Positions 12,260-46,298 of a stretch of 64,000 bases of DNA are shown here, piece after piece. The notes beneath the pieces were generated by a model. It did not search any database. It saw nothing but the letters and a program-made list of their open reading frames with translations, and had not been told where the DNA came from. The DNA is taken from contig CAVPVX010000011.1 of the NCBI GenBank assembly GCA_963709345.1, positions 160,001-224,000 of the forward strand, read 5' to 3'. A program made the position numbers and the translations under genes. How positions within the stretch are numbered: the stretch's first letter is position 1; every line of letters starts with the position of its first letter. Source of the DNA: an uncultured Actinomycetes bacterium (GTDB lineage: Bacteria > Actinomycetota > Thermoleophilia > UBA2241).

Positions 12260-13048
12260 TCACCCTTGACTTGAGGCTGAGGGTCCGCCCGTTTCCGGCG
12301 TGACGCGCCCGCTCTCGACGGCGCTGAGGTAGACGACGACGAGGACGACGTCGGCGACGAACAGCACGACGCCCATCACCAGGCACTGGACGAGGAGGAT
12401 GGGGAGCGCCTGCAAGAGCGCCGGAGGCCGCGGCTGCCGGTGAGCAGTTGCGCCATCGTGTCGCCGGCCAGCGAGACCGTGAGCAGGACGAGCCCCGAGA
12501 CCAGGAACGCCGACCTCACGGTGCGCCACGAGAGGACGATGGCGCGGATGGGCCCGACGCCGGCGAGCACCACGATGTAGTCGGCGTACATCAGCGCCAG
12601 GTACAGCGCGAACAGCGCGATCACGACGACGGCGCCGAACTCGAGGTTGTCTCCGCCGAGAACGAGCGCGCCGACGGCCGCCGCGGCGATCGCCTGGAGG
12701 ATCGCTTCGAGGCCCAGCAGCCGCGCGAACTGGCGGAAGTCCGCCGCGCCGAGGTGGAACGGGCCGGTGAGCGAACGCACGTAGCCGGCCCGCAGCCACG
12801 TCTTCGTCACGATGAACGCGAGGAACAGCCCGGCGATCACGAGGCTCTGTGACGCCACGGCGTCGGCGAGCGCTCCCCGCGTGTTCTCCAGGATGCTCGG
12901 GGAACGCCGCCCGGCGGTACAACCACGCCGAGACGAGAGGCACCGCCACGTCGAGCGCGAACAGGCCGATGGCGAAGAAGACGACGTACTGACGGGCGCG
13001 GAGGACGGCGGTCACCCGCTGGGGGAGCGTGGGTCGGTCGCCGTTCAT
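12260..13048 (-). CDS. Hypothetical membrane protein (frameshifted across ORFs)
   Basis: Hydrophobic segments are split between ORFs 12260..13048 and 12376..12858. Confidence 0.55.
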   Translation of the reverse strand: MNGDRPTLPQRVTAVLRARQYVVFFAIGLFALDVAVPLVSAWLYRRAAFPEHPGEHAGSARRRRGVTEPRDRRAVPRVHRDEDVAAGRLRAFAHRPVPPRRGGLPPVRAAAGPRSDPPGDRRGGRRRARSRRRQPRVRRRRRDRAVRAVPGADVRRLHRGARRRRAHPRHRPLVAHREVGVPGLGARPAHGLAGRRHDGATAHRQPRPPALLQALPILLVQCLVMGVVLFVADVVLVVVYLSAVESGRVTPETGGPSASSQG

Positions 13049-13137
13049 CGACGGGGAGTATATCCCGAGTGTGGTCCCGCCGGGCCGCCGGACGACCCAC
13101 CGAATGCACCATCTCCGGCAGCGGGTATCATGAGTCC

Positions 13138-13870
13138 ATGAGGCTCTCGCGCCGCACGCTGCTCTTTCTCGCCGCCAGCTGGGTCCTCGTGGTGCTCTAC
13201 CCGGACCCGACCCTGCTGGTGCGGAGCGTGCGCAACACCGTGTCGCCGAGCATCGACCCCACGGCCGTCGCCGCCCTCGCCGCCCGGCTCCCTGCCGACC
13301 CGGCGCTCATCGAGAGCTACGTCCTCGAGCGTCAGGTGCCGTACGCGTACGACTGGCAGTCGGCCGGCGTGCCGTGGTACTTCCCGACGACGGCCGAGGT
13401 CCTGCGCGCCGGTCGCGGCGACTGCGAGAGCCGGGCGCTGGTGTTCGCCGCGATCCTCACGGCCAAGGGCATCCCCAACGAGCTGCGCGTGAGCCTCGAT
13501 CACATCTGGGTCGACTACCCGGGCAAGCAGGCGAACGCGATGGAGAACGCCGGTGTCGAGCTCGCCGGACGGCGCGACGGCCGCTTCTTCCTGCGCTGGC
13601 CCTCAGACTTCGACCTCGGCCGGGAGGTCGCCGACCAGGTCGCGATCTACTGGACGCCGGCCCCGGCCGTTCGCGTGGCTGCTGCTCGTCGCCGGCCTCT
13701 CGCTCATCGCGCTGTGGAACGTCATCGCGGCGCTGCTCGGCGGCGGGCCGGCTCTGCCGGCGAGCGCGCCGCTGGGGAGGGCGACCGGCGGGACTCGGCG
13801 CTCGGTCGCGGGAGGCGGCGGCCGGCGGCCGTGGCCACGCCGGCTTGGCCGCGCGGCCGCAGCGGGTGTA
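13138..13870 (+). CDS. Transglutaminase-like membrane/secreted protein (frameshift near 13670; 3' end uncertain)
   Basis: N-terminal TM; GRGDCESRA and DHIWVD match a Cys-His type core. Confidence 0.6.
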
Positions 13871-13970: not shown

Positions 13971-15013
13971 ATGGACCCGATCGACCTGCGCAGCGACACC
14001 GTCACCCGGCCGTCGCCGGCGATGCGGAGCGCGATGCTGGAGGCCGAGGTCGGCGACGACGTGCTCGGCGACGACCCGACGGTCATCGCCCTGCAGGAGT
14101 ACGCCGCCGAGCTGCTCGGCAAGGAGGCCGGCCTCTTCTTCCCGTCGGGCACCATGTGCAACCAGGCGGCGCTGCGCGCGCTCACGCGGCGCGGCGACGA
14201 GGTGTTCCTGCACGCGCAGGCGCACATCATCTTCTACGAGCAGGGCGCGGCGGCGGCGCTCAGCCAGCTCCAGCTCCGCGTCTTCGACTCGCCCGACGGC
14301 ACGCTCGACCTCGAGAAGATGGACGAGTACGTGCACACCGACGCCGACGTGCACTGGGCGCCGACGCGTCTCGTCTGCCTGGAGCAGACGCACAACCACT
14401 GCGGCGGCGTCGTCCTGCCGCTCGAGCACATCCTGGCCGTGCGCGAGCTCTGCGACCGGCACGGCCTCGCCATGCACCTCGACGGCGCCCGGCTGTTCAA
14501 CGCCTCGGCGGCGAGCGGCGTCGGCGCGGCGGAGTACGCCGCGCCGTTCGACACGGTGAGCATCTGCCTGTCGAAGGGTCTCGGCGCGCCGGTCGGCTCC
14601 GTGCTCGTCGGCGACGCGGCGACGCTGCGCCAGGCCGCGCGCGCCCGCAAGATCTACGGCGGCGGGATGCGCCAGGCCGGCATCGTCGCGGCCGCCGGCC
14701 TCCACGCGCTGCGAGCACAACGTCGACGCGGCTCGCCGACGACCACCGCCGCGCGCGCCGCCTCGCCGAGGGGCTGGCGGCGCTCCCCGGCCTCGACGTC
14801 GACCTCGCGAAGGTGCAGACGAACATGGTGTTCGCCGGGACCAGCGGGACGGGGATGCCGGCCGCCGCGCTCGTCGAGCGGCTCGCCGCCCACGGCGTGC
14901 TGTGTCTCGACGAGGCGCCCTGGTCGGTGCGCTTCGTCACGCACCTGGACGTCGACGACGACGGTGTCGAGGCGGCGGTCGCCGGCGTCACCGCCGTCCT
15001 CGCCGCCGGCTGA
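13971..15013 (+). CDS. ltaE: Low-specificity L-threonine aldolase (apparent frameshift near 14715)
   Basis: [19 protein letters not shown] and [12 protein letters not shown] motifs; C-terminus [20 protein letters not shown] is in another frame. Confidence 0.88.
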
Positions 15014-15103
15014 CGGCCGTCCCGGGCGTTGGAGCCGTGTGCGCCGCCCGAGGCCGTGACTGCTGGCCTGCGGCGCCGGGACGGCATAGACTGCGGCAAC
15101 CGA

Positions 15104-15198: not shown

Positions 15199-15882
15199 AT
15201 GAGTCGATCCGACAGGGACAAGCAATCGGGGAAGCTGCAGTCGCCGTTCGCGGACCCGGTCGCGAGCCTTCCGACCACCGCGCAGAAGATCCTCGCGGCC
15301 GCCACAGGCCTGCTGGCCGAGGGCGGGTACGCCGCCGTCACGCTGGAGAACGTCGCCGCCGAGGCGGGGGTCAACAAGGCGTCGATCCGCTACAACTTCG
15401 GCAACAAGGCCGGTCTGATGATGGCCGTGGCCGACGCGCTCATCCACGATGAGTGCCTGCGCATCGTCGCCGACGTCGAGGGAGTCTCCGAAGAGGAGCA
15501 GTTGCACGCGGCGATGGAGGGCATCCGCGGCATGATCGTCGAGGCCGATTCCCTCCAGGGGTGGTTCGACATCCTGCCTCACGCCTTCCGCGATCCGGAT
15601 CTGCGCACGCGCATGTTCGCCCTGTATCCGTGGTGGTACGAGCAGAACCTCAAGTGGCTCGGGCTGCACCGCCCCGGCTACGAGGACAACGAGATCCTGG
15701 TGGGGCTGTCGGAGCTCATGGCCGCCATCCCCGACGGGCTGTCCGCTCAGGCGGCGCTGGATCCCGAGCACTTCGACCTCGCCCGGCCGCTGGCCGTTCT
15801 GGAGCTCCTGCTGCGGAATTCCATGGACCAGCTGCGGCAGGTCGCCGACGCCGTCGCTCGGGAAGAGGCCGCCGCGTCCTGA
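15199..15882 (+). CDS. TetR/AcrR-family transcriptional regulator
   Basis: KILAAA..LLAEGGYAAVTLENVAAEAGVNKASIRYNFGNKAGL helix-turn-helix. Confidence 0.92.
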   Translation: MSRSDRDKQSGKLQSPFADPVASLPTTAQKILAAATGLLAEGGYAAVTLENVAAEAGVNKASIRYNFGNKAGLMMAVADALIHDECLRIVADVEGVSEEEQLHAAMEGIRGMIVEADSLQGWFDILPHAFRDPDLRTRMFALYPWWYEQNLKWLGLHRPGYEDNEILVGLSELMAAIPDGLSAQAALDPEHFDLARPLAVLELLLRNSMDQLRQVADAVAREEAAAS

Positions 15883-15962
15883 GCCGTGGCTCGAGGGGGC
15901 GGCGACGCCCTGCTCCTCGAGCCGGTGAGCGCGGCGTTCGCCTGACCGGTCTACCGTGGTAC

Positions 15963-16007
15963 TTGACAAGACCCCGGCGGTCGCTATTCTCAATCCACCC
16001 AGGTGGG
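15963..16007 (+). promoter_or_regulatory. Promoter plus operator of the mtbB/mttB operon
   Basis: TTGACA-16 bp-TATTCT, then CCACC-CA-GGTGG at 15995-16006. Confidence 0.75.
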
Positions 16008-16084
16008 TATCGGAGGGGAAGGTTGACCCCGTTGCGCCCCCGCGACCGACCCGCCACGGGAATCCGGCTGGAAGGGGGTGGGAG

Positions 16085-17503
16085 TTGAGTTCCGTCGTCA
16101 CACGTATGGGGGACGGCAGCACCGTCCACCTGACCCGCGACGAGATCCGCAGGGATGTCGCCGAGGGATCCGAGGCGGCTGCCGTCAAGGCGAAGGTCCC
16201 GGTCCTCGACGAGAACGAGGTCGACTATCTCGTCGACATGTTCTGCTGCCCCAGCAGGGTGTGGGGCGTCGAGCGCGGCCACGAGGCCGTCATGACGAAG
16301 GACGGTGGCACCAACACGCTGATCTCGTCGCGGTTGTCGAGCGGCATCGCCGCGCCGATCGGCCGCGAGACGGCGGTGCGCCTCTTCGAGCGCGCCTTCG
16401 CTTACGACTCGATGGAGGTCGGCCACATCGACTACTCCGTCAAGCCGAGCAAGTTCATCGTCAGCGTCGAGCAGGAGCATATGGAACTCCTGCAGCACAC
16501 GACCGATCTTCCCGCTCTTCTACGGCTTCATGCCGAATCTCGGCCTGTACTACCGTCCGGACGGCCAGTTCGCGAACCCGTCGGACCTGCTGCCGCTGGC
16601 CAAGATCGACGAGGCGCGGCGGACGCAGGAGGAGGCTCTGGAGGCGTGCCACGACGACGTGGTCTGGCAGAGCAGGATGTTCTGTCGAGACGGGCGCCGA
16701 CGGCATCAACTACGACACGGTGGCGTCCACGGGCGACGCCGAGTTCCTCGCCACGCTGCGCGCCACCGAGGTCATCTCATCCACGACCGACATGCCGGTC
16801 GAGGTGAGCATGGCGGCCGAGATGGTCCTCGGGTTTCACGGAGAACTTGAGTACCGGGGCACCCGGCTCGCCGGTCTCTGGCCGCACCAGCAGATGAAGC
16901 TCGTCGAAGATGCCGGGGCGGCGATCTTCGGCCCCGTCGTCAACAACAACAGCAAGAAGTCGTGCGCCTGGAACGTCGCCCGTGCGGTGACGTTCGTCAA
17001 GGCGTGCACCGCGCGAGGCGAGGATCCCCATCCACCCCAACGTCGGCAACGGCGTGGGCGGCGTGCCCATGTTCGAGGTCTCGCCGATGGACATGGTGAG
17101 CCGGGCCAGCGCCGCGATGATCGAGGTCGGCAAGGCCGACGGGTTGTAGGTGGGCACCGGCGACCCGAACGGCATGGGCATGGCACACGCGCTCGCCTCG
17201 TCGATGGGTGGCATCAAGACCGCCGGAGATCTGGTGGCCAGGATGCAGCTCAACGAGAAGATGAGGCTGACGGAGGCAAAGCAGTACGTCGCCGACAAGC
17301 TCGGCGTCAGCGTGTTCGACCTGTCCGATTCGACCGTCATGCGCACCGTGCGCGAAGACTTCGACATCGGCGTCGTGACCGCGGTGCCGGGGCTGGCGAA
17401 GGGGCTCGAGGCCAAGGCCCGTATCGCCGACCTGCTCGGCATCAGGATCAACAGCGTCGAGCGGCTCAAGGCCAAGACGGGCTTCGGCGCGCTCCTGGAC
17501 TGA
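16085..17503 (+). CDS. mtbB: Dimethylamine:corrinoid methyltransferase MtbB #1, pyrrolysine at TAG 17147-17149 (about 3 apparent frameshifts near 16505, 16685, 17015)
   Basis: TRMGDG, DYSVKPSK, MPNLGLYY and GLWPHQQ motifs; [23 protein letters not shown] matches MtbB GVDGI-O-IGVGDP. Confidence 0.85.
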
Positions 17504-17546
17504 CCCCGGGGCGTCTGCGCGACGCCGCCTCCGGAAGGAGACCCGT

Positions 17547-18173
17547 ATGAACGACCAGCTCAAGCAGGCCATCATCGCCGGCGACGCCGACGTGGCCACC
17601 GCGCTCACCACGGCGCTCCTCGCCACCGGGGCCACGGCGCGGGAGATCCTCGACTCCGCCCTGCTCCCCGGCATGGAGGTCGTCGGCACGCGCATGCGTG
17701 ACGGCGAGTGCTTCATCCCCGAGGTGCTGCTCTCCGCCCGCGTCATGCAGGCCTGCCTCGACCTGCTGCGCCCGCACATGGCCGCCGGCGACGAGGCCGG
17801 CGGCGGCGTGGTCGTGATCGGCACCGTCGAGGGCGACCTGCACGACATCGGCAAGAACCTCGTCGGCATGCTCCTGCAGGGGGCCGGCTTCACGGTCGTC
17901 AACCTCGGCACCGGGGTGACGGCGGCCGACTTCGTCGCCGCCGTCAAGGAGCACGCGCCGAAGATCATCGGCATGAGCGCCCTGCTCACGACCACCCTGC
18001 CGCACATGGCCGAGACGATCGCCGCGCTCAAGGCCGAGAGCCTGCGCGACTCCGTCAAGGTGATGGTCGGCGGCGCCCCGGTGACCGCCGCCTACGCCGA
18101 CGAGATCGGCGCCGACGGCTACGGCGCCAACGCCGGCATGGCGGTGGAGCGGGCGAAGGAGCTGGTGGCATGA
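17547..18173 (+). CDS. Methylamine-type corrinoid protein (MtbC/MttC-like)
   Basis: B12 cap domain plus GDLHDIGKNLV, SALLTTT and GGAPV..IGADGY motifs. Confidence 0.95.
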   Translation: MNDQLKQAIIAGDADVATALTTALLATGATAREILDSALLPGMEVVGTRMRDGECFIPEVLLSARVMQACLDLLRPHMAAGDEAGGGVVVIGTVEGDLHDIGKNLVGMLLQGAGFTVVNLGTGVTAADFVAAVKEHAPKIIGMSALLTTTLPHMAETIAALKAESLRDSVKVMVGGAPVTAAYADEIGADGYGANAGMAVERAKELVA

Positions 18174-18500
18174 CCAGCATGGCAGAAGGCATCTACGCAG
18201 AAGCAGCCGAGAGCATCGTAAGCGCAGACCGGGCGGCCGCCGAAGAGGTCGCGACGCGCGCCCTCGCCGACGTGCACGACATCGGCAAGGCGATCGTGAT
18301 CGCCTACCTCAAGGCCAACGGATTCGAGGTCACCGACCTCGGCCGCGACGTCAGCGCCGAGACCTTCATCGCGCGCGCCAAGGAGCAGAACGCCGACATC
18401 ATCGGCATGAGCGCGCTGGGCCGACCAGATCGGCGCCGACGCCTACGCCGAGGACGCCAACGACGGCGTCAAGAAGATGGACGCGCTGCTGGGCGTCTGA
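18170..18500 (+). pseudogene. Second corrinoid protein remnant with two internal deletions
   Basis: The cap helix joins directly to DVHDIGK; after IIGMSAL it jumps out of frame to ADQIGADAYAEDA. Confidence 0.75.
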
Positions 18501-18549
18501 GAGTCGTGCGGGGTCGGATCGGCCCGGATCGGAGAGTAGGGGTGGGCGG

Positions 18550-19989
18550 ATGACGGTGCGAGTGGAGTGGCTCACGGTCGCCGAGAGGGACGCCGTGTAC
18601 GCGGAAGCGGTCTCGATCCTCGAGCGCGTCGGCATGAAGATGCAGGGGGCCGCCGTGCTCCCGCTGCTGCGCGAAGCCGGCGCCGCCGTCGACGGGGCCT
18701 CCGGCGTCGTGCGCTTCCCTCCGGAGCTCGTGGCGAGCGCCGTCGCCGCGTGCCCGCGAGACGTCCTCATGGCCGGCGAGACGCCGGCCGGTGACGTGGT
18801 CCTGGACGGCTCGCGGACGTTCTTCAGCGTCAGCGGCTGCGCGGCCAAGACGCTCGATCCCGACACCGGCGCGGTGCGGCCGTCGACCCTCGACGATCTG
18901 CGCGCCGGCACGATCGTCCTGGAGGCCACGGCTGAGCTGGACGTCGTCTGGACCTTCGTCACCGCCACCGACGTGCCGCTGGAGCGGCGCGAGCTGGTCG
19001 AGTACCACACCTACCTCACCGAGACGTCCAAGCCGATGGTGTTCGTGGACTGTCCCAGCGACACGAGCCACGTGCGGCGCATCTTCGAGATCGTCTCCGG
19101 CGACCTCGCACGCTTCCGGGCCCGGCCGCGCATGTCCCTCCTGTGCGCCGCCCGGTCGCCGCTCGAGGTCAACGGTGAGCTGCTGGACGCGGCGGTGGAC
19201 TTCGCGTCGCTGGGAGCGCCGATCTGGGCGTACTCGATGCCCATCTCGGGAGCGACCGCTCCGGTCACGCCGGCCGGTACTCTGGCGCTGGTCTGGGCGG
19301 AGGTGCTCGGCATCATCACCGCCCTTCAGACGGCGGCCCCGGGGGCTCCCGTCGTCGCCTGCTGCGGCCCCGGCATCCTCGACATGCGGCATACGACCAT
19401 GTCTCTGGGCAACCTCGAGAGCACTCTGGTCGGCGCGGCGTCTACGGAGGTCGGGCACCACCTCGGGATCCCGGTACACAACTCCGGCCTGTCCACCGAT
19501 GCCAAGCACTGCGGCGTCCAGGCCGGGTATGAGAAGGGCCTCAAGGTAATGGCCGCCGTCGCCACGGGCGCGGACATCGTGAGCGGCGGATTCGGGTTCC
19601 TCGACTCGTCGAGCACCTTCAGCCTTCCCATGATCCCGGTGGACGCGGAGATCGCCGCCATGGCGCGACGCATGGCCGCGGGCATCGGCATCTCGCCGGA
19701 GACGTTCATGAGCGACTCGTTCCCGCGTGTCGGCATCGGCGGCGACTTCCTGCGTGAGAAGGCCACCAGGACGCGCATCCGCGGTGGCGAGCACTTCGTC
19801 CCGCGCATCGGCTCGAGGCTGCCCTTCGAGCAGTGGGCGAGCGAAGGTCGCACGGAGACGGACGCGGCGACCGTCGTCGTCCGCGCCGCGCTTGCCGCGC
19901 GCGCCGAGCGCGGGCCGCGGCTGACCGACGAGCAGCGTCGTGACCTCGCGGAGGTCTGCGGCGTCGAGCCGGGTGAACACCCGGCGTGA
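18550..19989 (+). CDS. Non-pyrrolysine MttB-superfamily methyltransferase
   Basis: MPISGATAPVTPAGT and GLSTDAK..QAGYEK motifs; Ser at the Pyl-equivalent position. Confidence 0.9.
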   Translation: MTVRVEWLTVAERDAVYAEAVSILERVGMKMQGAAVLPLLREAGAAVDGASGVVRFPPELVASAVAACPRDVLMAGETPAGDVVLDGSRTFFSVSGCAAKTLDPDTGAVRPSTLDDLRAGTIVLEATAELDVVWTFVTATDVPLERRELVEYHTYLTETSKPMVFVDCPSDTSHVRRIFEIVSGDLARFRARPRMSLLCAARSPLEVNGELLDAAVDFASLGAPIWAYSMPISGATAPVTPAGTLALVWAEVLGIITALQTAAPGAPVVACCGPGILDMRHTTMSLGNLESTLVGAASTEVGHHLGIPVHNSGLSTDAKHCGVQAGYEKGLKVMAAVATGADIVSGGFGFLDSSSTFSLPMIPVDAEIAAMARRMAAGIGISPETFMSDSFPRVGIGGDFLREKATRTRIRGGEHFVPRIGSRLPFEQWASEGRTETDAATVVVRAALAARAERGPRLTDEQRRDLAEVCGVEPGEHPA

Positions 19990-20050
19990 GTGGAAGGCGG
20001 ACATCGATGAAGGCACGGCACAGGCCGGACGGACCGAAGGAGGTCCGGCC

Positions 20051-21517
20051 GTGAAGCGAAATCTCCATGCGGGGCGCCTGCGCAGTGACGGGGTGCAGTT
20101 TCGCGTGCTCACCGACGACGATCTCGCCGACGTCCATCTCGGGACCCTGGAGGTCCTCGAGCGGACGGGCGTGTTCGTCGAGGACGAAGAGGCCCGCGAG
20201 GTCTTCGCCGGGTCCGGAGCCACGGTCGACGCCAAGGGCGTCGTCCGGATCCCAGGCCACGTCGTCGAGCAGGCCGTGCGCACAGCGCCGAGCAAGCTGA
20301 GGCTCGCCGGCCGCAACCCCAGGAACGACATCGTGCTCGAGGCGGGCCGCGTAGGCTTCACCAACTTCGGCGAGGGCGTGCAGATCGTCGACCCGTACAC
20401 CGGCGAGCTCAAGGTCCCGACCAGACAGGACGTCGCCGACACCGCCAAGGTCGTGGACGCGCTGCCCAACGTGGACGTGTACGAGCGCGCCGTGGTGGCC
20501 GAGGACGTCGACCAGCGCGTCGTGCATCTGCACCAGGCCGAGGCGTGGATGACGAACACGTCCAAGCACGGCTTCATGGGCTCCGGCAACGGCTATCTCT
20601 CGAAGAAGCTGGTCGAGATGGCCACGGCCGTCGCCGGCGGGCGCGAGAAGCTCAAGGCGCGCCCGCTCATCTCCTTCATCACCTGCCCGGTGAGCCCGCT
20701 CAAGCTCGTTCGGGACACGTGCGAGATCATCATGACAGGCGCGCGCGAGCACGTGGCCGTCAACATCCTGTCGATGGCGATGGCCGGCGGGTCGTCTCCG
20801 GTGACCCTGGCGGGTACGCTCGTGACGCACAATGCCGAGGTGCTCGCCGGTCTGACCCTGGGCCAGCTGGTCAGGCCGGGGGCGGCCGTCGTGTACGGCA
20901 GCTCGACGACGGCCATGGACCTGCGGCTCGCGTCGGCGAGCGTCGGCTCGCCCGAGTGCGGGCTCATCAACGCCGCCGTCGCCCAGATCGCCCGCTTCTA
21001 CCTGCTGCCCAGCTGGGTGGCCGGTGCGTAGGGCGACTCCAAAGTGGTCGATGCCCAAAGTGGCCACGAGAAGACCCTGACCGGCCTTATGCCGGCGTTG
21101 GCAGGCGCCAACGTCATCTACGGTCTGGGGATGATCGAGTCGGGCATGACCTTCGACTTCGGCCAGCTCGTGATGGACGACGAGTTCGCCGGGATGATCA
21201 AGCAGTGCGTCCGTGGCATCCGCGTGGACGACGAGTCGCTGGCGATCGACGTGATCGACGACATCGGCCCCTTCGGCGACTTCCTCAGCCACGACCACAC
21301 GCTGGCCCACATGCGCGAGCAGTCACAGCCGGCCTTCATCGACCGCCGCGTCCGGGAGGACTGGAAGCAGAGCGGTTCGCTGACGATCCAGGACCGCGCG
21401 CTCGCCAAGGCGCGCACGATCCTCGAGACCCATCAGCCGGATGCGCTGCCCGAGGGCGTGGCCGCCGAGTTCACCGAGATCATCCGCGGCGCCGAGCGGG
21501 AGCTGGGCGTCTCGTGA
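20051..21517 (+). CDS. mttB: Trimethylamine:corrinoid methyltransferase MttB, pyrrolysine at TAG 21029-21031 (codon 327)
   Basis: SMAMAGGSSPVTLAGTLVTHNAE; PSWVAGA-TAG-GDSKVVDAQSGHEKT continues in frame to TGA 21517, as in Pyl-MttB. Confidence 0.95.
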
Positions 21518-21548
21518 CCGGCGTTCCGCCAGAAGGAGGGCGGGACGG

Positions 21549-22931
21549 ATGAGCGCGATCCGTACACGCATGGGCGACGGCTACGTCACCGAGCTCACGC
21601 CGCAGGAGCTACGCGACGACCTCGTGGCCGGCAGCGCCGACGCCGTGAAGCGCGGCAAGGTGCCGCCGCTCGAGGAGAACGAGGTCGACTGGCTGGTCGA
21701 CCTGTTCACCAACCCCAGTCGCATCATGGGGGTGGAGGCGGGCCACGAGGTCATCCTGACCAAGGACGGCTCCGTCAACACGCTGTACTCGGCCCAGCTC
21801 TCCAGCGGCGTAGGGCTGCCGCTGGGCCGCGAGCAGTGCTTCCGCATCTTCGAGCGTGCGTTCTGCTTCGACACCATGGAGATCGGCCACCCCGACTACT
21901 CCTACAAGCCGGTCAAGCCGATCGTCGCCCTGGAGGCGACCGGCGTGGAGCAGGCTCTGCTGACGGCCGTGATCCCGGTGTTCTACGGCGCCATGCCGAA
22001 CTTCGGCCTGTATGCCCAGCCGGACGGGCCGTTCCCCAACCCCGCCGACCTGCTCCCTCGAGGTGAGGTGGAGGCGGCCCGCGAGGCGCAGATGCAGATG
22101 GCCGAGGCATGCAAGGCCGACATGCTCTACGTCTCGCGCATCATGGCCGAGGTGGGCAGTGACGGCATGAACTTCGACACCACGGCCTCGACCGGCGACG
22201 CCGAGTTCCTCGCCGTGCTCGAGACGGTGGAGGAGCTGGCCGCGACCACCGACCTCGCCATCGAGGTCGGCATGGCGGCCGAGTTCGTCCTCGGCTTCCA
22301 CGGCGAGCTCGAGTACAAGGGCAAGCGGCTCGCCGGCATGTGGCCCCACCAGCAGGTCAAGGTGGTGGAGGATGCCGGCGCGCACCTGTTCGGACCCGTC
22401 GTCAATACCAACTCGGGCCGATCGGTGCCGTGGAACGTCGCGCGCGCCGTCACCATCGTCAAGGAGTGCTCGCGCGTCGCGACGATCCCCATCCACGCCA
22501 ACGTCGGCATGGGCGTCGGCGGCGTGCCCATGTTCGAGGTGCCGCCGACGGACGTCCTCACGCGGGCCAGCGCGGCCATGGTCGAGATCGGCCGCGTCGA
22601 CGGGTTGTAGGTGGGCACCGGCGATCCCTACGGGATGTCGATCAGCCACGCGCTCGCGTCGGGCATGGGCGGTATCAGGACCTCCGGAGATCTGGTGGCC
22701 CGGATGCAGCTCCGCAAGAAGATGAGGCTCCCGGAAGCGAAGAAGTACGTGGCCGACAAGCTCCACGTCAGCCTGGACGATCTGTCCGACTCGACCGTCA
22801 TGCGCGGTCTGCGTCAGGAGCTGGACATCGGCGTCATCACGGCCGTCCCCGGTGCGCGGCGGGGCATCGAGGCCAAGCGCAACATCGCCGAGCTCCTTGA
22901 CGTCGAGGTGCCCTGCCTCAAGCGGCTGTAG
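21549..22931 (+). CDS. mtbB: Dimethylamine:corrinoid methyltransferase MtbB #2, pyrrolysine at TAG 22608-22610 (codon 354)
   Basis: One frame: TRMGDG...GRVDGL-TAG-VGTGDP...GDLVARMQ...[10 protein letters not shown], 460 residues. Confidence 0.95.
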
Positions 22932-23287
22932 GTGCAGGGCGGCTCTCTCCCGGACGCCCGCGGCCGGCTTGCAGCCGGCCGCGGGCGTCCGCGTGGCCGG
23001 GATCGACAGGGCGGCACGCGGCGGGTCGCGAGCTCGGGTTTCGGATTCCGTGCCGAATCGCTAGCCGCGGTTACTAAGTTCCTCCATCAGGTCCACTTGA
23101 TTCATGAAGTGAGGAAGACGGACGAGACACGATTGGAATCCGTCGTTGAGCGCTTGTCGGCGGGGAGCCCCGGTGCTACCCTCGGGGACAGGGACTCCGT
23201 CACGTGGCCCGCCGCCTCACGGCCCGGCCCGGGATGTGAGGCGAAATCCCAGGCGCTGCACATCACGACTGAGCGAGGAGCTGCCAG

Positions 23288-24016
23288 ATGAACAAGATTG
23301 TCCCCCTCTGGTCCGTCCCGCGGTCCATCTCCACCGGGTTCGAGCGCATGATGTTCGAGCGCGGCGACTTCAAGGTCGTCCACGAGCCGTACGGCTACTT
23401 CTTCTATCTCGAGGCCGCGCACAAGGAGCCCGTGGGCATGCAGCCGCAGGAGGGCCACCCGCGGACCTTCGAGGGCACGACGGAGATGATCGAGGCGGCA
23501 GCCACCGACAAGCCCGTCTTCTTCAAGGACATGGCCTACTACGTCAGCGACGTCGCGGACGAGGACTTCATGAAGAAGTTCACCAACACGTTCATCATCC
23601 GTGACCCCGCCCTCACGCTGGTCTCGTACCACAAGCTCGACCCCGGCGTGACCCTGCGCGAGATCGGCTTCGAGTCGCAGTTCAAGCTGTTCGAGTTGGC
23701 CAAGAAGATCACCGGCGAGGTGCCGGCCGTGGTCGACGCCGAGGACCTGCTCATCGATGCCGGGTCCGTGGTCAAGCAGTACTGCGAGAAGGTCGGCATC
23801 CCGTTCCTGCTCGAGTCGCTCACCTGGAAACCCGAGTTCAAGCAGGAGTGGAAAGACTGGGAGATGTGGCACCTCGACGCCGGCGACAGCACCGGGTTCC
23901 AGAAGGACATGGAGGACTTCGGCTACACGGTCGACGACGTGCCCGAGCTCAGGGAGATGTACGACAAGTGCATGCCGCTGTACGAGAAGATGTACGCGGA
24001 GCGGCTCAAGCCGTGA
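23288..24016 (+). CDS. Sulfotransferase-like P-loop protein
   Basis: LWSVPRSISTGFERM, HEPY, FFKDM, FIIRDP and VVDAEDL motifs. Confidence 0.75.
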   Translation: MNKIVPLWSVPRSISTGFERMMFERGDFKVVHEPYGYFFYLEAAHKEPVGMQPQEGHPRTFEGTTEMIEAAATDKPVFFKDMAYYVSDVADEDFMKKFTNTFIIRDPALTLVSYHKLDPGVTLREIGFESQFKLFELAKKITGEVPAVVDAEDLLIDAGSVVKQYCEKVGIPFLLESLTWKPEFKQEWKDWEMWHLDAGDSTGFQKDMEDFGYTVDDVPELREMYDKCMPLYEKMYAERLKP

Positions 24017-24148
24017 CCGGCTGGTCTTCCCGGGAGGGCGTCTGTGCCGCGGGCGGCCCTCCCGGGGGGATTCGAGTGTGACCGCGCCTGCCCGGCCGGG
24101 CGCCGCGCGAGCATCCGGATCGCACCACCATCGGCGAGGAGTCCTGCC

Positions 24149-25394
<1,246 letters not shown>

Positions 25395-25414
<20 letters not shown>

Positions 25415-27104
25415 TCGCCGGCGCCGGCTGAGCCTTCCCTCACGCGGCGACCTGCTGCACGACCTGGTCGCCGGCGTCACCGTGGGGGCGTCGCAGGTCG
25501 GCAACGCCATGGCGTACACCATGCTCGCCGGCGTCCCGCCCCTCCACGGACTGTATGGGGTCGCCGCCGGGACGCCCGCGGGAGCGCTGGCGTCCGGGTC
25601 GCAGCGCATGCCGATCGTGCCGACGGCGGCGCTCTGTCTGGCGGCCGGCGGCGCGCTGGCGACCCTGCCCCCGGCGCACCGCGTCGACGGGCTGTTCACG
25701 CTCGCCGTGCTCACCGGCGTCATCATGCTCGCCGCCGGCCTGCTGCGAGCGGGCGGACTGGTGCGGTTCATCTCCAACGCGGTGATGGTCGGGCTCATGG
25801 CCGGCATCGCCGTGACGATCCTGCTCTCCCAGCTCGGCGCGCTCACCGGATTCTCCAGCCGCTACGACAACAAGGCCCGTGAGGCGGCCGACCTCCTGTT
25901 GCATCCTCTTGCGTCCGACCTGTGGACCGCCGTCATCGGCCTGACTACGGTAGTCCTCGTCCTCCTCCTCAGGCGCACCCCCGCCCGGCTCTTCGCCATG
26001 GCGCTGCCGCTCGTCCTCATGACGGCCGTCGTCGCCCTCGTCCAGCCGCCGTCCGTCGCCGTGGTCGGAGACATCGCCCCGATCCCCCGGGCGTTGCCGT
26101 TGCCTCGCCTCCCCGATCTCTCACTGGCGCCGGGGCTGCTGCTGCCGGCGCTCTCCCTGGTGATCATCGGTCTCGTCCAGGGCGCCGGACTCAGCCGCAC
26201 GGTCCCCAACGCGGACGGGTCCTTTGGCGACACCAGCACGGACTTCGTAGGCCACGGCGTCGCCAACATCGTCTCGGGCGTCTTCAGCGGTGGGGTGGCG
26301 GGGGGGTCGGTCCAGGCCACGGCGCTCAACCTCGGCGCCGGGGCGCGCACCCGGTGGGCGTCGGTCTTCACGGGCGCGTTCGTCATCGTCGTCATCCTCG
26401 CCGTCGCCCCACTCGTGCAGGAGGTGCCGCTGGCGGTCACCGCGGGCATCCTGATCGTCGCCGCGGCCGGCGCGCTCAAGCCGCGCGATGCCCTCGATGT
26501 CTGGCGGGCGGACAGGATGTCCGCCGCCATCATGGTGATGACCTTCGTCCTGGTCCTGGTCATCCCGCTCCAGTACGCGGTGCTCGCCGGGGCGGCCGTC
26601 TCGGTGCTGAAGTACATCTACCTGTCGTCGCTCGACGTCCGCGTGACCCAGGTGGTGCTGAACGGCGGGGGGTTGCCGAGAGAGGTGGAGGCTCCGCGCG
26701 CGCTCCCGAGCGAGGCGGTGACCGTCCTCGACGTCTACGGCAGCCTCTTCTACGCTGCCGCACCTCGCGTCCGAACGTCACTGCCGGTCGTCGGTGAGGC
26801 TCACTGCCCCGTCGTCGTCCTCCGTCTGCGCGGCCGTGGCAGGCTCCACAGCGCCACGATCGCCGTGCTTCGCGACTACGCGGAGGAGTGCATGGCCCGC
26901 GGAGGGCGCCTGTATCTCGCCGGCGTGGGCACGGAGATGGAGGATCAGTTGCGTCGCACCGGCCTTCTCGACCTGCTGGGCCCCGACGCGGTGGTGGAGG
27001 CGAGCGACGAGGTGTACGGCGCGTGCGCGACGGCGCAGCGGCGCGGCGAACGCTGGCTGGCGGAGGACGCCGGCGGGCGAGGGCCGGGTCCGCGCACCGT
27101 CTGA
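25395..27104 (+). CDS. SulP-family anion transporter with STAS domain
   Basis: DLVAGVTVG..AMAYTMLAGVPP..GLY, VMVGLMAG and C-terminal YGSLFYAA. Confidence 0.9.
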
Positions 27105-34996: not shown

Positions 34997-36448
34997 GTGC
35001 GTGCGCACATGACCTGGCTGGACGAGACCGAGAAGCGGTCGTTCGTCGAAGAGGCGCTGGGCATCCTCGAGCGCGTGGGCGTCGAGCTCAAGGGGTCGGC
35101 GGCGCTGACCGTCCTCGCGGACCTCGGGGCGGACGTCGATCTCGCCACCGGGATCGTGCGTTTTCCGCCCGACCTGGTGCTGCGCGCCGTCGAGGCGTGC
35201 CCGCGCCGGGTGCTCTTCGCCGGGTCGTCGCCCGAGCACGACGTGGCGCTGGACGAGGGAGAGCCGGCGCACTTCTGCTCGTCGGGCTGCGCCGCGTTCG
35301 TGCTCGACCACGAGACGGGCAGCAGGCGTCCCTCGACGCTGACCGACCTGCAGGCGGCGACGATCCTGCTCGACGAAGTTCCCGAAGTCGACGTCCTGTG
35401 GACGACGATCACGGCCGGCGACGTGCCGGTCGAGATCCGCGAGCTGGTCGTCTGCTACGTGGTGCTCACCGAGACGCGCAAGCACGTCACGCTCGTCGAC
35501 AGCCCCTCGCAAGCCGAGCCGTTGCTGCGCATCATGGACGTGGTCTCGGGAGACGCCGAGGCGTTCCGGGAGCGGCCGCGGTTCAGCACGCTGCTCACCG
35601 CGGCGTCTCCGCTCCGCATCGACGGGCCGCTTCTCGACTTCCACGCGGCCACGGCGCGGCGCGGGGCGCCCGTCGAGGTCTACACAGTGCCCATGGCTGG
35701 AGCCACGTCGCCGGTGACGCCGGCCGGGACCGTCGTGCAGGGTCTGGCCGAGTTCCTGGCGATCGCGACCGCCCTGCAGGCGCTGGCTCCGGGGGCCCGG
35801 GTCGTCATGGGAGTCTCGGGCTCCATCATGGACATGCGTTCCGCGGGGGTCTCGTACGCAGCGCCGGAATGCACGCTGATGAACGTCGCCTGCGTGGAGC
35901 TCGCGCATCACCTGGGAGTGCCTGCGGCCGTTCCGGGCCTCGCGACCGACGCCAAGTACGCCGGCGTGCAGGCGGGGTATGAGAAGGCGCTCAAAGGCCT
36001 CGCGACGGCCGGCGTGGGCGCCGACGTGCTGAGCGGCGGCGTGGGCATGATCGACTCGGTCAACACGCTGTTCCTGCCCCAGATCGTCCTGGACGCGGAG
36101 GTGGCCGGAATGATCCGCCGCGTGCTCGGCGACGTCGCCACCGGGCGCGACGACATGATGGTGGAGATGATCGAGCGGGTGGGCATCGGCGGCGACTTTC
36201 TCAAGGAGAAGGAGACCGCCCGGCGGCTGCGCGCCGGCGAGCACTTCGCCCCCGCGATCTCGTCACGCCAGGCCTACGACCAGTGGGTCGGCGACGGGCG
36301 CGACGAGGTGGCTCGGGCGAGGGAGCGCATGGATGCGCTCTTCGCCGCCCGGGCCGAGCGCGGCCGGATGCTCCATGAGGAGACCCGGGCCGAGCTCGCC
36401 GCCGTCTGCGGGGTGACCGCGGAGATGGAGCTCGCGCTCGGCCACTGA
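34997..36448 (+). CDS. Non-pyrrolysine MttB-superfamily methyltransferase (paralog of 18550..19989)
   Basis: PMAGATSPVTPAGT and GLATDAKYAGVQAGYEK motifs; Ala at the Pyl-equivalent position. Confidence 0.9.
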   Translation: MRAHMTWLDETEKRSFVEEALGILERVGVELKGSAALTVLADLGADVDLATGIVRFPPDLVLRAVEACPRRVLFAGSSPEHDVALDEGEPAHFCSSGCAAFVLDHETGSRRPSTLTDLQAATILLDEVPEVDVLWTTITAGDVPVEIRELVVCYVVLTETRKHVTLVDSPSQAEPLLRIMDVVSGDAEAFRERPRFSTLLTAASPLRIDGPLLDFHAATARRGAPVEVYTVPMAGATSPVTPAGTVVQGLAEFLAIATALQALAPGARVVMGVSGSIMDMRSAGVSYAAPECTLMNVACVELAHHLGVPAAVPGLATDAKYAGVQAGYEKALKGLATAGVGADVLSGGVGMIDSVNTLFLPQIVLDAEVAGMIRRVLGDVATGRDDMMVEMIERVGIGGDFLKEKETARRLRAGEHFAPAISSRQAYDQWVGDGRDEVARARERMDALFAARAERGRMLHEETRAELAAVCGVTAEMELALGH

Positions 36449-41733: not shown

Positions 41734-42948
41734 TCACTTCGCCTTCGCCGCGGCCTTCTTCTCCTTGACCGGCTCGGTGCCGGGCTTGACGGCCATGTTG
41801 CGGTAGACCTGCTCCATGTCTTCGGCGGTGAACTTGCGCGGGTTGTTGTTCCAGAGCCGCGCCTGCGTGAGGGCGCCCTTGACCAGGTCCGGGATCGCCG
41901 ACTCGGGGATTCCGACCTCGTTCAGGTACTGCGGCACGCCGAGGTCGTCGGCCAGCGTGCGCAGCGCCTGCAGCGTGACCTCGCAACCCTCGCGGTCGCT
42001 CAGCCCTTCCATGTTCTCGCCCATGAGCTCGCCGATCTCGCGGAAGAACTGCGGGCAGGCCAGCATGTTGTACTCCATGACCCAGGGGAGCATGAGCGTG
42101 TTGGCGATGCCGTGCGGCACGTGGAACATGCCGCCGACCGGGTAGCTCATGGCGTGGACGGCGCCGACGCCGGCGTTGCCGAAGGCGATGCCGCCGAGCA
42201 GCGAGCCGATGGCCATGTTGTGGCGCGCCCAGGCGTTGGTCCCGTCGAAGACGGCGGTGCGGATGCTCTGGCTGATGAGCTTGATGCCCTCCGCGGCCAG
42301 CGGGTCGGTATGCATGGTGGCGTTGACCGAGATGTAGGCCTCGATGTTGTGGATGAGTGCGTCCATGCCGCTGGCGGCGGTGACGCCGGGCGGGCAGCTG
42401 TAGGTGAGCACGGGGTCGACCATGGCGATGTTGGGGATCAGGTGGGGGCTGACTACCCCCTGCTTCACATTGAGCTTCTCGTTGGCGAAGATGCCGATCG
42501 CGGTGACCTCGGTGCCCGTACCGGCCGTGGTCGGCACGGCGATGAACGGCAGCCCCTTCTTCGGCACCTGGTCGACGCCGACGTAGTCCTCGATGCGGTC
42601 GTCGGTGGGGGCGAGCACCGCGACCAGCTTGGCGACGTCGATGGCCGAGCCGCCGCCGAAGCCGACGATGAGGTCGTACTCGCCCTTCTTGGCGATGTCC
42701 ACGATCTTCTGGACGCTGCCCATGGGGGGCTCGGGGACGGCCTTGTCGCAGATGCCGACTTCCATACCCGCTTCACGCAGCGGGGCCTCGACGCTGTCCA
42801 CGGTGCCGCAGCAGGCCACGCCGGGGTCGGTGATGACGAGCACCTTGGTGGCGCGGAGCTTCTTCGCCTCGGCGCCGAGCTGCGCGACGCAACCGTTGCC
42901 GGTGATGAGCGTCTTGGGCGCCCGGTGGACGCGGATCTTGGTATCCAT
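41734..42948 (-). CDS. Iron-containing alcohol dehydrogenase (probable 4-hydroxybutyrate dehydrogenase)
   Basis: GGGSAID, PTTAGTGTE, DALIH and HAMSY..HVPHG motifs; in operon with cat2 and abfD. Confidence 0.85.
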   Translation of the reverse strand: MDTKIRVHRAPKTLITGNGCVAQLGAEAKKLRATKVLVITDPGVACCGTVDSVEAPLREAGMEVGICDKAVPEPPMGSVQKIVDIAKKGEYDLIVGFGGGSAIDVAKLVAVLAPTDDRIEDYVGVDQVPKKGLPFIAVPTTAGTGTEVTAIGIFANEKLNVKQGVVSPHLIPNIAMVDPVLTYSCPPGVTAASGMDALIHNIEAYISVNATMHTDPLAAEGIKLISQSIRTAVFDGTNAWARHNMAIGSLLGGIAFGNAGVGAVHAMSYPVGGMFHVPHGIANTLMLPWVMEYNMLACPQFFREIGELMGENMEGLSDREGCEVTLQALRTLADDLGVPQYLNEVGIPESAIPDLVKGALTQARLWNNNPRKFTAEDMEQVYRNMAVKPGTEPVKEKKAAAKAK

Positions 42949-42974
42949 GGCTCTTCTCTCCTCCGTTGTGACTG

Positions 42975-44285
42975 CTATCTCGTGAAGCGGCCGGGCCCGT
43001 AGACGGCGGCCGCCTCCTCGCGAATCTGGTCTCTGAATGCCGGGTCGGCGATCTCCAGCAGGGCTTCGGCACGCTGCCGCAGCCCCAGGCCGCGCAGGTG
43101 GGCGATGCCGTGCTCGGTGACGATGTAATCGACGTCGGCGCGCATCGTGGTGACGGCGGTGCCGGGGGCGAGGGCGGCGGCGATGCGCGACACCGTCCCC
43201 TTCTTCGCCGTGCTCGGCAGAGCGATGATCGCCTTGCCGTCGCGGCTGCGCGCGGCGCCGCGGACGAAGTCGACCTGGCCGCCGATGCCGGTGAACTGCG
43301 TCGCGCCCATCGTGTCGGCCACGACCTGCCCCATGACGTCGACCTGGAGGGCGGAGTTGATGGCGACGACGCGGTCGTTCTGGCCGATCAGGTACGGGTC
43401 GTTCGTGATGTTGACCGGGAACATGTTGACGGCCGGGTTGTCGTCGACGAAGTCGTAGAGACGGCGGGTCCCCATGAGGAAGGTCGCCGCTATCTTGTCG
43501 CGGTTGATCGCCTTGTTGCGGTTGGTGATCACGCCCTCGTTGTAGAGGTCGACGACGCCCTCGCTGAACATCTCGCTGTGGATGCCGAGGTCGTTCTTCT
43601 CGTGCAGGAAGGCGAGGACGGCGTCGGGGATCGCGCCGATACCGAGCTGCAGGCAGGCCCCGTCGTCGATGAGGCCGGCGATGTGCCTGCCGATGGCCTC
43701 TTCGACGGGGCCGATCCTGGGCGGCTGCAGTTCGATGATGTCCTGCTCCGTCTCGACGATGAAGTCGAGCTCGGAGACATGGATGAAGGAGTCGCCGTGG
43801 GTACGCGGCATCTTCGGGTTGACCTGCGCGACGACGGTCCGGGCGACCTGGGCCGCCGGCTTCGTGTAGTCCACGGAGATGCCGAAGGAGCAGAAGCCGT
43901 GCTTGTCCGGCGGCGAGACGTGGACGAGGACGACGTCCGGCGGCAGGTAGCCCTCGCAGAAGAGCCTGGGGATCTCGCTGAAGAAGACGGGGATGTAGTC
44001 GCCGCGGCCGTCCTTCACGGCTTCGCGTGAGGACGCGCCGACGAAGAGCGACTGGTGGAAGAAGGAGTCGGCGTACTCCGGCCGGCAGTACTCGCCGTTG
44101 CCCATCGCGACCATGTGGTTGATCTCGACGTTCTCGAGCTCGCCGGCCCGGGCGACCAGCGCGTCGACGAGCTCGAGCGGCTCGCCGCAGGCGTGCGCGA
44201 ACACGACGCGGTCGCCTGACCTCACGCACTGCATGGCCTCGGCGGCGGTGACGTGCTTGCCGGCGTAGTCGGTGTTCCAGTCCAT
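42975..44285 (-). CDS. cat2: 4-hydroxybutyrate CoA-transferase (acetyl-CoA hydrolase/transferase family)
   Basis: LQLGIGAIP, DLGIHSEMF and GIGGQVDFVRGA motifs. Confidence 0.88.
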   Translation of the reverse strand: MDWNTDYAGKHVTAAEAMQCVRSGDRVVFAHACGEPLELVDALVARAGELENVEINHMVAMGNGEYCRPEYADSFFHQSLFVGASSREAVKDGRGDYIPVFFSEIPRLFCEGYLPPDVVLVHVSPPDKHGFCSFGISVDYTKPAAQVARTVVAQVNPKMPRTHGDSFIHVSELDFIVETEQDIIELQPPRIGPVEEAIGRHIAGLIDDGACLQLGIGAIPDAVLAFLHEKNDLGIHSEMFSEGVVDLYNEGVITNRNKAINRDKIAATFLMGTRRLYDFVDDNPAVNMFPVNITNDPYLIGQNDRVVAINSALQVDVMGQVVADTMGATQFTGIGGQVDFVRGAARSRDGKAIIALPSTAKKGTVSRIAAALAPGTAVTTMRADVDYIVTEHGIAHLRGLGLRQRAEALLEIADPAFRDQIREEAAAVYGPGRFTR

Positions 44286-44287
44286 CT

Positions 44288-44584
44288 CTAGTGCTCCTTG
44301 AGCTTGCGCATGATGGCGGGCGCGAGCTCGTCCTGCGGCGTGGGAACGCCGTCGACGAGCTCGCCGGCGACGACCACCGCGGTGGGGTCGTCGCTGGTGA
44401 GCATCTGGTTCGACGCGCACGCGCGGGAGCAGCCGCTCAGGTGCACGGTCGCTCCCGGGCGTAGGTCCGGATCGTCGGCGGGCAGCTCGGCGGCGACTGC
44501 CGTGCGGTCGATCTGCGGGTTGCAGCCGCCGCAGTACGCGACCTTCACGCGCTTCCCGTCGTCCGCTGTGCCCTCGCCGGTCAT
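44288..44584 (-). CDS. Small Cys-rich protein (YCGGCNP...GCxxAC)
   Basis: ORF between abfD and cat2 with four Cys in two motifs. Confidence 0.7.
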   Translation of the reverse strand: MTGEGTADDGKRVKVAYCGGCNPQIDRTAVAAELPADDPDLRPGATVHLSGCSRACASNQMLTSDDPTAVVVAGELVDGVPTPQDELAPAIMRKLKEH

Positions 44585-44588
44585 CGAG

Positions 44589-46099: not shown

Positions 46100-46259
46100 G
46101 CGGTGCACTCCTTCCTGGCGCCCTCGGGTGGTCGGGCGCTGCGCTGGCTTGCAGGCACGGGCGCGCGCATGGGCGGGAGCGCTCGCGCGTTGGTTCGCTC
46201 CGGCGGGGCGCGGACGGCTCGCGATCGACCGTGTGACGCTCGGCGCCCTCGTGGATTCA

Positions 46260-46298
46260 ACTATAGGAGCGCCTCCGGCGTTAGTCAATTAGTGACTA
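46260..46298 (-). promoter_or_regulatory. Promoter of the abfD operon with an overlapping inverted repeat
   Basis: Minus strand TTGACT-17 bp-TATAGT; TAGTCA-N5-TGACTA overlaps the -35 element. Confidence 0.7.

Follow-up and report, generated by a model that had tools for sequence, protein, structure and literature searches.

An operon-like cluster of amber-interrupted methylamine methyltransferase genes in an uncultured Thermoleophilia bacterium that probably inserts pyrrolysine at specific UAG codons

Introduction

Among 81 bacterial genomes encoding a pyrrolysyl-tRNA synthetase (PylRS), Guo et al. (2022, JBC, PMC9630628) counted two Actinobacteria, and the supplements to their survey name the PylSc proteins of a 'Thermoleophilia_bacterium' and of 'Actinobacteria_bacterium_ADurb.BinA094'; the survey is silent on the methyltransferases. 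Expression of mttB and mtbB encoding pyrrolysine (Pyl) was reported for some peatland Actinobacteriota metagenome-assembled genomes (MAGs) by Ellenbogen et al. (2023, mSystems, PMC10805028), whose list of the most active methylotrophs includes the genera Bog-752 and RBG-16-64-13; the available text gives this in one sentence, without gene counts, pyl cassette or downstream pathway, and the supplementary tables may list the MAGs and genes. The bacterial maximum in 2007, eight Pyl-type genes (six MtbB, two MttB), belonged to the Delta1 symbiont of Olavius algarvensis (Zhang and Gladyshev 2007, PMC1976440). The archaeal reference enzyme is MttB/MttC of Methanosarcina barkeri (PDB 7xcl, 7xcm and 7xcn; Li et al. 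2023, PMC9842639), for which the structure paper gives residue 334 as Pyl334 and describes Gly110 and Tyr364 as fully conserved in Pyl-type MttB. Here we analyse a 64,000-nucleotide stretch of DNA from an uncultured Thermoleophilia bacterium (Actinomycetota), positions 160,001 to 224,000 of contig CAVPVX010000011.1 in assembly GCA_963709345.1 (the window), which contains three methylamine methyltransferase genes, mtbB1, mttB and mtbB2, each interrupted by an in-frame TAG. A reading of the bare sequence (the original prediction) had proposed that this lineage decodes UAG as Pyl and uses trimethylamine (TMA) and dimethylamine (DMA) as methyl donors.

The window shares with the peatland MAGs of Ellenbogen et al. 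(PMC10805028) the phylum and the same two amber-containing enzyme families. A MAG that bears the name of the genus Bog-752 ('isolate bog_752') carries an mtbB (locus L043) with its TAG in the same column and 67% identity to MtbB2, and its genome encodes a PylSc above cut-off. The Thermoleophilia and ADurb.BinA094 PylSc sequences in the supplements of Guo et al. (PMC9630628) are collinear with PylSc of the source genome, a comparison made by eye with no identity computed. Like the Delta1 symbiont (PMC1976440), the source organism is a bacterium, not a methanogen, that combines several Pyl-type MtbB and MttB proteins with tRNA-Sec and a full pyl set; unlike that symbiont with its eight genes, it has 20 Pyl-type genes (11 + 9) in 3.1 Mb, a comparison that does not extend to later records.

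Because Pyl has already been reported from Thermoleophilia and Actinobacteriota, the original prediction reads the locus correctly and yet loses much of its novelty. Its observation is confirmed, its interpretation is supported and its lineage-level novelty is largely gone, with relatives published by Guo et al. (2022) and Ellenbogen et al. (2023), although the label of a known Pyl clade applies to the contig only in part. Literature searches on pyrrolysine in Actinobacteriota or Actinomycetota, on RBG-16-64-13 and on Bog-752 returned, among the matches listed, only PMC10805028 as relevant, and none of the papers on UBA2241 concerned Pyl by title or abstract. As the encoding and expression of actinobacterial Pyl-type mttB and mtbB had been published, what is added here is extent and detail: new relative to the literature searched are the conservation across the family, the presence of 20 Pyl genes in a genome, the ancient radiation of MtbB and the finding of no Wood-Ljungdahl or methanogenic outlet.

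Results

In-frame TAG codons of mttB and mtbB

All three TAG codons were found at the positions given in the original prediction (17147, 21029 and 22608), in the following genes of the window:

16094..17503 (start approximate), plus strand: mtbB1, dimethylamine methyltransferase homologue; TAG at 17147-17149; frame-broken, with four PF09505 pieces
20051..21517, plus strand: mttB, Pyl-type trimethylamine methyltransferase; TAG at 21029-21031; TIGR02369 731.2 bits
21549..22931, plus strand: mtbB2, intact Pyl-type dimethylamine methyltransferase; TAG at 22608-22610; TIGR02368 517.3 bits

Read-through translation gave KADGL-O-VGTGDPNG for mtbB1 (O marking the TAG, which at 17147-17149 was also seen directly), WVAGA-O-GDSKVVDAQSGHEK for mttB, where the TAG is residue 327 of the frame starting at 20051, and RVDGL-O-VGTGDP for mtbB2, where it is residue 354 of the frame starting at 21549. 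Homology goes on in frame past the TAGs, as had been proposed, and the family matches (PF09505, TIGR02368, PF06253 and TIGR02369) span them. mtbB2 matched PF09505 in a single stretch (positions 4-461 of 463, 639 bits) and lay above the TIGR02368 equivalog cut-off of 369.1 bits; mttB matched PF06253 with 322 bits and, over 20051-21514, lay above the TIGR02369 equivalog cut-off of 525 bits. The coding-type signal in G+C content at third codon positions (GC3) persisted 3' of each TAG.

The mttB TAG falls on the Pyl site of Methanosarcina MttB, in agreement with the original prediction: in an end-to-end alignment with M. barkeri MttB (7xcl_A, E 7e-114) it is paired with X334, which is Pyl334 according to PMC9842639, and chain 7xcm_A has K at the same position. 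In the window MttB the residues that correspond to G110 and Y364 are unchanged, and Glu replaces T111 of the M. barkeri enzyme. For mtbB, the column was judged by conservation because no solved MtbB chain was available; no MtbB chain was among the matches of the PDB searches made, in which MtbB itself was never the query. A scan of one genome per species for mtbB2 homologues yielded 241 confirmed loci, and among the best 80 of these, all from other genomes and with 59-95% protein identity, the column held a TAG codon in 82 of 82 high-scoring segment pairs (HSPs). Of the 150 MtbB matches listed for the genus of the source genome, 149 contained one in-frame TAG and the remaining one contained two. 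Most of the best 120 database homologues listed for MtbB2 were 353 amino acids long, the length of a gene call ending at the TAG.

The pyrrolysine cassette

The genes needed to make and charge Pyl, sought in the rest of the source genome (G000; its contigs are numbered C1 to C11, C11 being the one that holds the window), were all present on the same contig as the window, 141-148 kb upstream of it, and the proteins scored above their NCBIfam cut-offs:

C11 11843-12853, plus strand: pylB, 427 bits (cut-off 348)
C11 12903-14052, plus strand: pylC, 279.6 bits (cut-off 248.3)
C11 14136-14921, plus strand: pylD, 212 bits (cut-off 150)
C11 14991-15063, plus strand: tRNA-Pyl(CUA), called by ARAGORN as tRNA-Pyl(cta)
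C11 16192-16452, plus strand: pylSn, 122 bits (cut-off 51)
C11 18405-19130, minus strand: pylSc, 318 bits (cut-off 178)

The tRNA is predicted to fold into a compact cloverleaf (z = -3.1) in which the D-loop has 5 nt, the variable region has 2 nt and the anticodon stem is elongated, a shape that we take to be typical of tRNA-Pyl; an Rfam scan around pylT gave no match at E <= 0.01. The arrangement has in common with bacterial split PylRS systems (Desulfitobacterium hafniense and others) that pylSn and pylSc are separate and that pylBCD and pylT lie nearby, and differs from them in that pylSc is on the opposite strand, about 2 kb past pylSn, with two genes, a radical-SAM gene and a corrinoid-protein gene, in between. 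Because pylB, pylC, pylD, tRNA-Pyl, pylSn and pylSc share one contig, decoding of UAG as Pyl is well supported at the genomic level; the proposal that the lineage decodes UAG in this way draws support from both the cassette and the TAG column, and Pyl would then be the residue inserted.

Just 5' of pylB, an aldehyde:ferredoxin oxidoreductase-like gene is followed by a gene for a 4Fe-4S protein (C11:8177-10678; L100:177-2675). The two share a frame across a TAG, and this is probably a pair of adjacent genes and not a Pyl site. A tRNA-Sec gene (anticodon TCA) is located at C1:120215-120312, and the organism therefore probably uses both selenocysteine and pyrrolysine.

Extent in the source genome and in the lineage

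The source genome comprises 3.11 Mb in 11 contigs with 69% GC and is 98.06% complete, with a contamination estimate of 1.45%. Paralogues counted by tblastn amounted to 11 full-length mtbB genes with the TAG at column 354, plus one fragment at a contig end, and to nine mttB genes with the TAG at column 327, beside about 35 further MttB-superfamily genes without a TAG. The TAG-bearing genes were distributed over seven contigs. The ten intact MtbB paralogues form two groups with pairwise identities of 39-68%, and each is interrupted by a single stop, always a TAG and always within the motif DG[LY]-O-[VI]GxGD; seven paralogues on C2, C7 and C10 scored 392-475 bits against the TIGR02368 cut-off. 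A screen for further Pyl genes by coding-like in-frame stretches 3' of a TAG gave 43 candidates, and those outside mtbB and mttB look like neighbouring genes sharing a frame.

The description of the host as high-GC and probably actinobacterial holds: in addition to the GC content, 77 of the best 80 mtbB loci came from records labelled Thermoleophilia, Actinomycetota, Actinomycetes or actinobacterium, and the other three comprised two Deltaproteobacteria records and one without a visible taxon. The two former loci (L020 and L081), whose mtbB genes are 95% and 62% identical to MtbB2, are short contigs of one 'Deltaproteobacteria bacterium' record and are probably mis-binned or mislabelled, because their pattern matches that of the Thermoleophilia records. 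Among 36 other species of the genus, 33 had PylSc above cut-off, as did 81 of 401 genomes in an even sample of the class, source genome included. By family, matches at E <= 1e-40 were obtained in 72 of 79 genomes of the window's family and in nine of 61 of a second family, and in none of the other ten families sampled. Of the 54 genomes of the genus, 52 (the source genome among them) encode MtbB above its cut-off, in as many as 12 copies. The two exceptions are small, at 1.7-1.8 Mb, and their completeness is 98%.

The methyltransferase cluster and its corrinoid proteins

Together with the three TAG-bearing genes, the following features of the window make up or accompany the cluster:

15199..15882, plus strand: TetR-family regulator, directly upstream of the cluster; PF00440 TetR_N, E 2e-13
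17547..18173, plus strand: corrinoid (B12-binding) protein, predicted methyl acceptor of MtbB/MttB enzymes; PF02607 and PF02310
18164..18430 (coordinates approximate), plus strand: corrinoid-protein gene remnant; PF02310 positions 6-61 of 121 only
18550..19989, plus strand: MttB-superfamily methyltransferase without Pyl and without in-frame TAG; PF06253 227 bits, TIGR02369 306.2 bits
35009..36448 (start approximate), plus strand: third MttB-superfamily gene of the window, without Pyl; PF06253 252 bits, TIGR02369 335.2 bits

The order tetR, mtbB1, corrinoid protein, non-Pyl mttB-family gene, mttB, mtbB2 is operon-like, and the position of the TetR-family regulator suggests that it may control the cluster. 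Both TAG-less MttB paralogues remained below the TIGR02369 cut-off of 525 bits, and the one at 35009..36448 sits downstream of an Opp/Dpp-type ABC transporter. The 208-residue corrinoid protein has copies with 99-100% amino acid identity at C1:441973-442593, C7:343293-343913, C8:13078-13698 and C10:87662-88282 in addition to that of the window, and each of the five adjoins mttB or mtbB genes; recent duplication, gene conversion or a collapsed or duplicated assembly could account for them. The remnant, which has an internal deletion and has lost its C-terminus, is similar to the corrinoid protein whose gene lies between pylSn and pylSc and is missing from the syntenic region of a relative, where the flanking genes are about 97 nt apart versus 371 nt here.

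Two MtmB-family (PF05369) genes without an in-frame stop were observed elsewhere in the genome, at C2:391900-393261 (L104:5885-7327, minus strand) and C7:776285-777439. Both adjoin corrinoid-protein genes, the one on C2 has Ile at the position of Pyl202 of M. barkeri MtmB (1l2q_A), and they may be Pyl-independent MtmB homologues. At C9:3135-6020 (L105), one open frame holds an MttB-family gene followed by lysine 2,3-aminomutase (AblA, 558 bits), either fused or merely adjacent, just upstream of a gene for a RamA/AcsV-like activase.

Two further gene groups of the window were recorded. Sulfotransferase, ATP sulfurylase and SulP-family sulfate permease genes at 23288-27104 lie on the same strand directly 3' of mtbB2, with no evident link to the methyltransferases. 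A minus-strand cluster at 41737-46288 encodes an Fe-alcohol dehydrogenase, an acetyl-CoA hydrolase/transferase and an HpaB-like (4-hydroxybutyryl-CoA dehydratase-type) protein, which suggests a 4-hydroxybutyrate-type fermentation route.

Frame breaks in mtbB1

The original prediction attributed the splitting of the genes to the TAGs, which is right as far as the TAGs go; it had missed that mtbB1 is also broken by three one-nucleotide insertions. This gene matched PF09505 in four pieces in three frames (positions 4-143, 133-197, 199-311 and 308-462), and a GC3 frame plot tracked the shifts. Comparison with three orthologues (88% nucleotide identity) located extra single bases near 16506, 16683 and 17011-17013. 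Where short-read contigs of relatives cover these sites they lack the extra base (17013 in four of four metagenomes, 16683 in three and 16506 in two). Programmed frameshifting was rejected, as the three orthologues and the relatives' contigs read straight through. The strain of the window was not found in public runs (no run contained more than 0.14 of the sampled words of 15900-23000) and no RNA run was listed.

We regard an assembly artefact as the likely cause, since frame breaks are frequent in this assembly, a related assembly has indels of its own and the pieces of mtbB1 show no other decay. About 10 of the roughly 46 MttB-family loci of the assembly (our own count) are split between frames, and further breaks affect a beta-eliminating lyase gene (13971-15059), the HpaB-like gene (44592-46288), an S58 peptidase gene and pylC; in the related assembly, uncompensated single-base indels disrupt genes whose counterparts in the source genome are intact. 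In every segment of mtbB1 the coding-type GC3 is undiminished and the family similarity strong; the only stops are those that the shifts introduce, and all three changes are insertions that the relatives' contigs lack. A true, recently inactivated pseudogene appears less likely, and we leave it some weight because three breaks in one gene, all uncompensated one-nucleotide insertions within 510 bp, exceed what a uniform error rate predicts per gene; moreover, the degraded corrinoid-gene remnant lies 660 bp downstream of mtbB1, and redundancy among 11 mtbB paralogues would permit the loss of one.

Other genes of the window showed comparable irregularities: compared with a relative's sequence, the beta-eliminating lyase gene contains two additional bases (near 14714 and 14726), the HpaB-like gene is in at least three pieces, and in a membrane-protein gene at 12263-13306 the frame-plot signal switches frames. 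These breaks fit a general indel problem in the assembly.

Proposed route of the methyl groups

In the mechanism that we propose, PylB, PylC and PylD would build Pyl from lysine and the split synthetase, PylSn plus PylSc, would charge tRNA-Pyl(CUA). At the one in-frame UAG of an mttB or mtbB mRNA, the ribosome would insert Pyl while termination competes with it, UAG still being a common stop in this genome. A methyl group would be moved from TMA (by MttB) or DMA (by MtbB), substrates suggested by family membership, to the Co(I) corrinoid protein, which a RamA/AcsV-like activase would keep reduced; a pterin-binding MeTr/MtgA-like methyltransferase would probably transfer the methyl group on to tetrahydrofolate, to be oxidised or assimilated. 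The acceptor cannot be coenzyme M via MtbA as in M. barkeri, and a tetrahydrofolate-linked MeTr/MtgA-like enzyme is the likely counterpart.

For the activase sought under the name RamA, a RamA/AcsV-like gene was found at C9:6140-7930. Of the methyl-tetrahydrofolate acceptor and Wood-Ljungdahl module that the original prediction had looked to, the first part has a likely candidate in a MeTr/MtgA-like protein at C3:92995-93939 (E 3e-34 to 2yck_X and 6e-34 to 4o0q_A), a methylenetetrahydrofolate reductase (MTHFR) gene also being present, and the second was not found: no CdhC/AcsB (acetyl-CoA synthase, PF03598) match was obtained in this 98.06% complete genome in a search that matched both control methanogens, which makes the gene not found rather than proven absent. 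Likewise, the source genome gave no match to the MtrH family and no COX1 (haem-copper oxidase), cytochrome bd not having been searched for. A strong Pterin_bind match at C3:65154-65876 was rejected as the methyl acceptor, as it adjoins folK and is most likely folP. With no acetyl-CoA synthase, MtrH or haem-copper oxidase found, the organism is therefore not a Wood-Ljungdahl acetogen; it is probably an anaerobe. Pyl insertion, the substrates, the methyl acceptor and the physiology are thus matters that we infer, with methyl groups passing to tetrahydrofolate in a non-acetogenic organism, from genes, family scores and a conserved TAG column that were observed.

Discussion

We put at about 0.88 the probability that the operon-like cluster of the window belongs to an uncultured Thermoleophilia (Actinomycetota) host that inserts Pyl at specific UAG codons. 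If the TAGs were ordinary stops, the genes would be truncated or dead and the similarity downstream of them a relic, a view that could appeal to the frequency of TAG as a stop (308 of 1424 crude calls), to public gene calls that end at the TAG (353 amino acids in most of the best 120 homologues listed) and to the broken frame of one copy, mtbB1. We consider this very improbable, given that the TAG keeps its column in 82 of 82 HSPs over 59-95% identity with similarity extending to the C-terminus, that ten of ten intact paralogues with 39-68% identity have a single stop, always TAG and in the same motif, that the GC3 coding signal persists past each TAG, and that the genome has a complete pyl cassette. 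Just as improbable is that the contig was mis-binned and stems from a known user of Pyl, for instance a deltaproteobacterium, firmicute or archaeon, so that its assignment to the actinobacteria would be an artefact: the mtbB2 locus most similar to that of the window (L020, 95%) does come from a 4-kb contig of a 'Deltaproteobacteria bacterium' record, but the window's own contig is 486 kb long with a GC content of 0.692, like the other ten contigs (0.689-0.701), the housekeeping genes guaB, guaA, pgk and gdh adjoin the methyltransferase cluster, TAG-bearing mtbB and mttB genes are spread over seven contigs and MtbB over 52 of 54 genomes of the genus, and the taxonomy of 77 of the best 80 loci and the contamination estimate of 1.45% point the same way.

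Several observations weigh against Pyl insertion by this host. The support for it in this organism is genomic. The proposal that the mtbB TAGs sit at the Pyl column of the Methanosarcina enzyme stands as regards the invariance of the column (82 of 82 HSPs and the 150 genus matches); the correspondence of this column to the Pyl site of archaeal MtbB is presumed. pylC is broken near its C-terminus, with model positions 307-365 (the last ~60 residues) in another frame; if this break and the three insertions in mtbB1 are real, part of the system is decaying. The corrinoid protein at 17547..18173 fell below every specific NCBIfam corrinoid cut-off (MtgC_2 223.5 against 370, MtbC 191.7 against 350).

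The use of UAG as a stop belongs with these points. Of 1424 crudely called genes, 308 (21.6%) have TAG as their stop, in line with its share among stop trinucleotides (20.6%), and genes ending in TAG had no excess of back-up stops, with a median read-through extension of 56 codons versus 51.5 for TGA. Because TAG occurs at its background share and read-through extensions are no shorter than after TGA, UAG is ambiguous, not reassigned, in this genome. A code in which every TAG is Pyl has been proposed for some archaea (bioRxiv 10.1101/2024.09.30.615893); full reassignment implies that TAG is absent or very rare as a stop, and the crude calls here run counter to it.

A broader and decidedly tentative interpretation, which we hold to be rather doubtful, is that this family is the heaviest known bacterial user of Pyl, with 20 UAG-bearing methyltransferase genes in 3.1 Mb, and that the eleven old MtbB paralogues, present in up to 12 copies across the genus, have diverged toward a range of secondary or tertiary amines beyond dimethylamine, the host being an anaerobe, neither acetogenic nor methanogenic, in which UAG accounts for about one-fifth of stops without back-ups. 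If this were true, control of Pyl insertion would need the supply of Pyl or an as yet undescribed context signal. Pyl-dependent demethylation of TMA and DMA outside the methanogens diverts methylamines from methane production in soils, sediments and peat, and a widespread uncultured Thermoleophilia family with at least 10 such genes per genome would be a sizeable, little-studied methylamine sink. The clade would also offer a natural example of ambiguous UAG decoding in a bacterium of 69% GC, and it supplies a large set of divergent MtbB enzymes.

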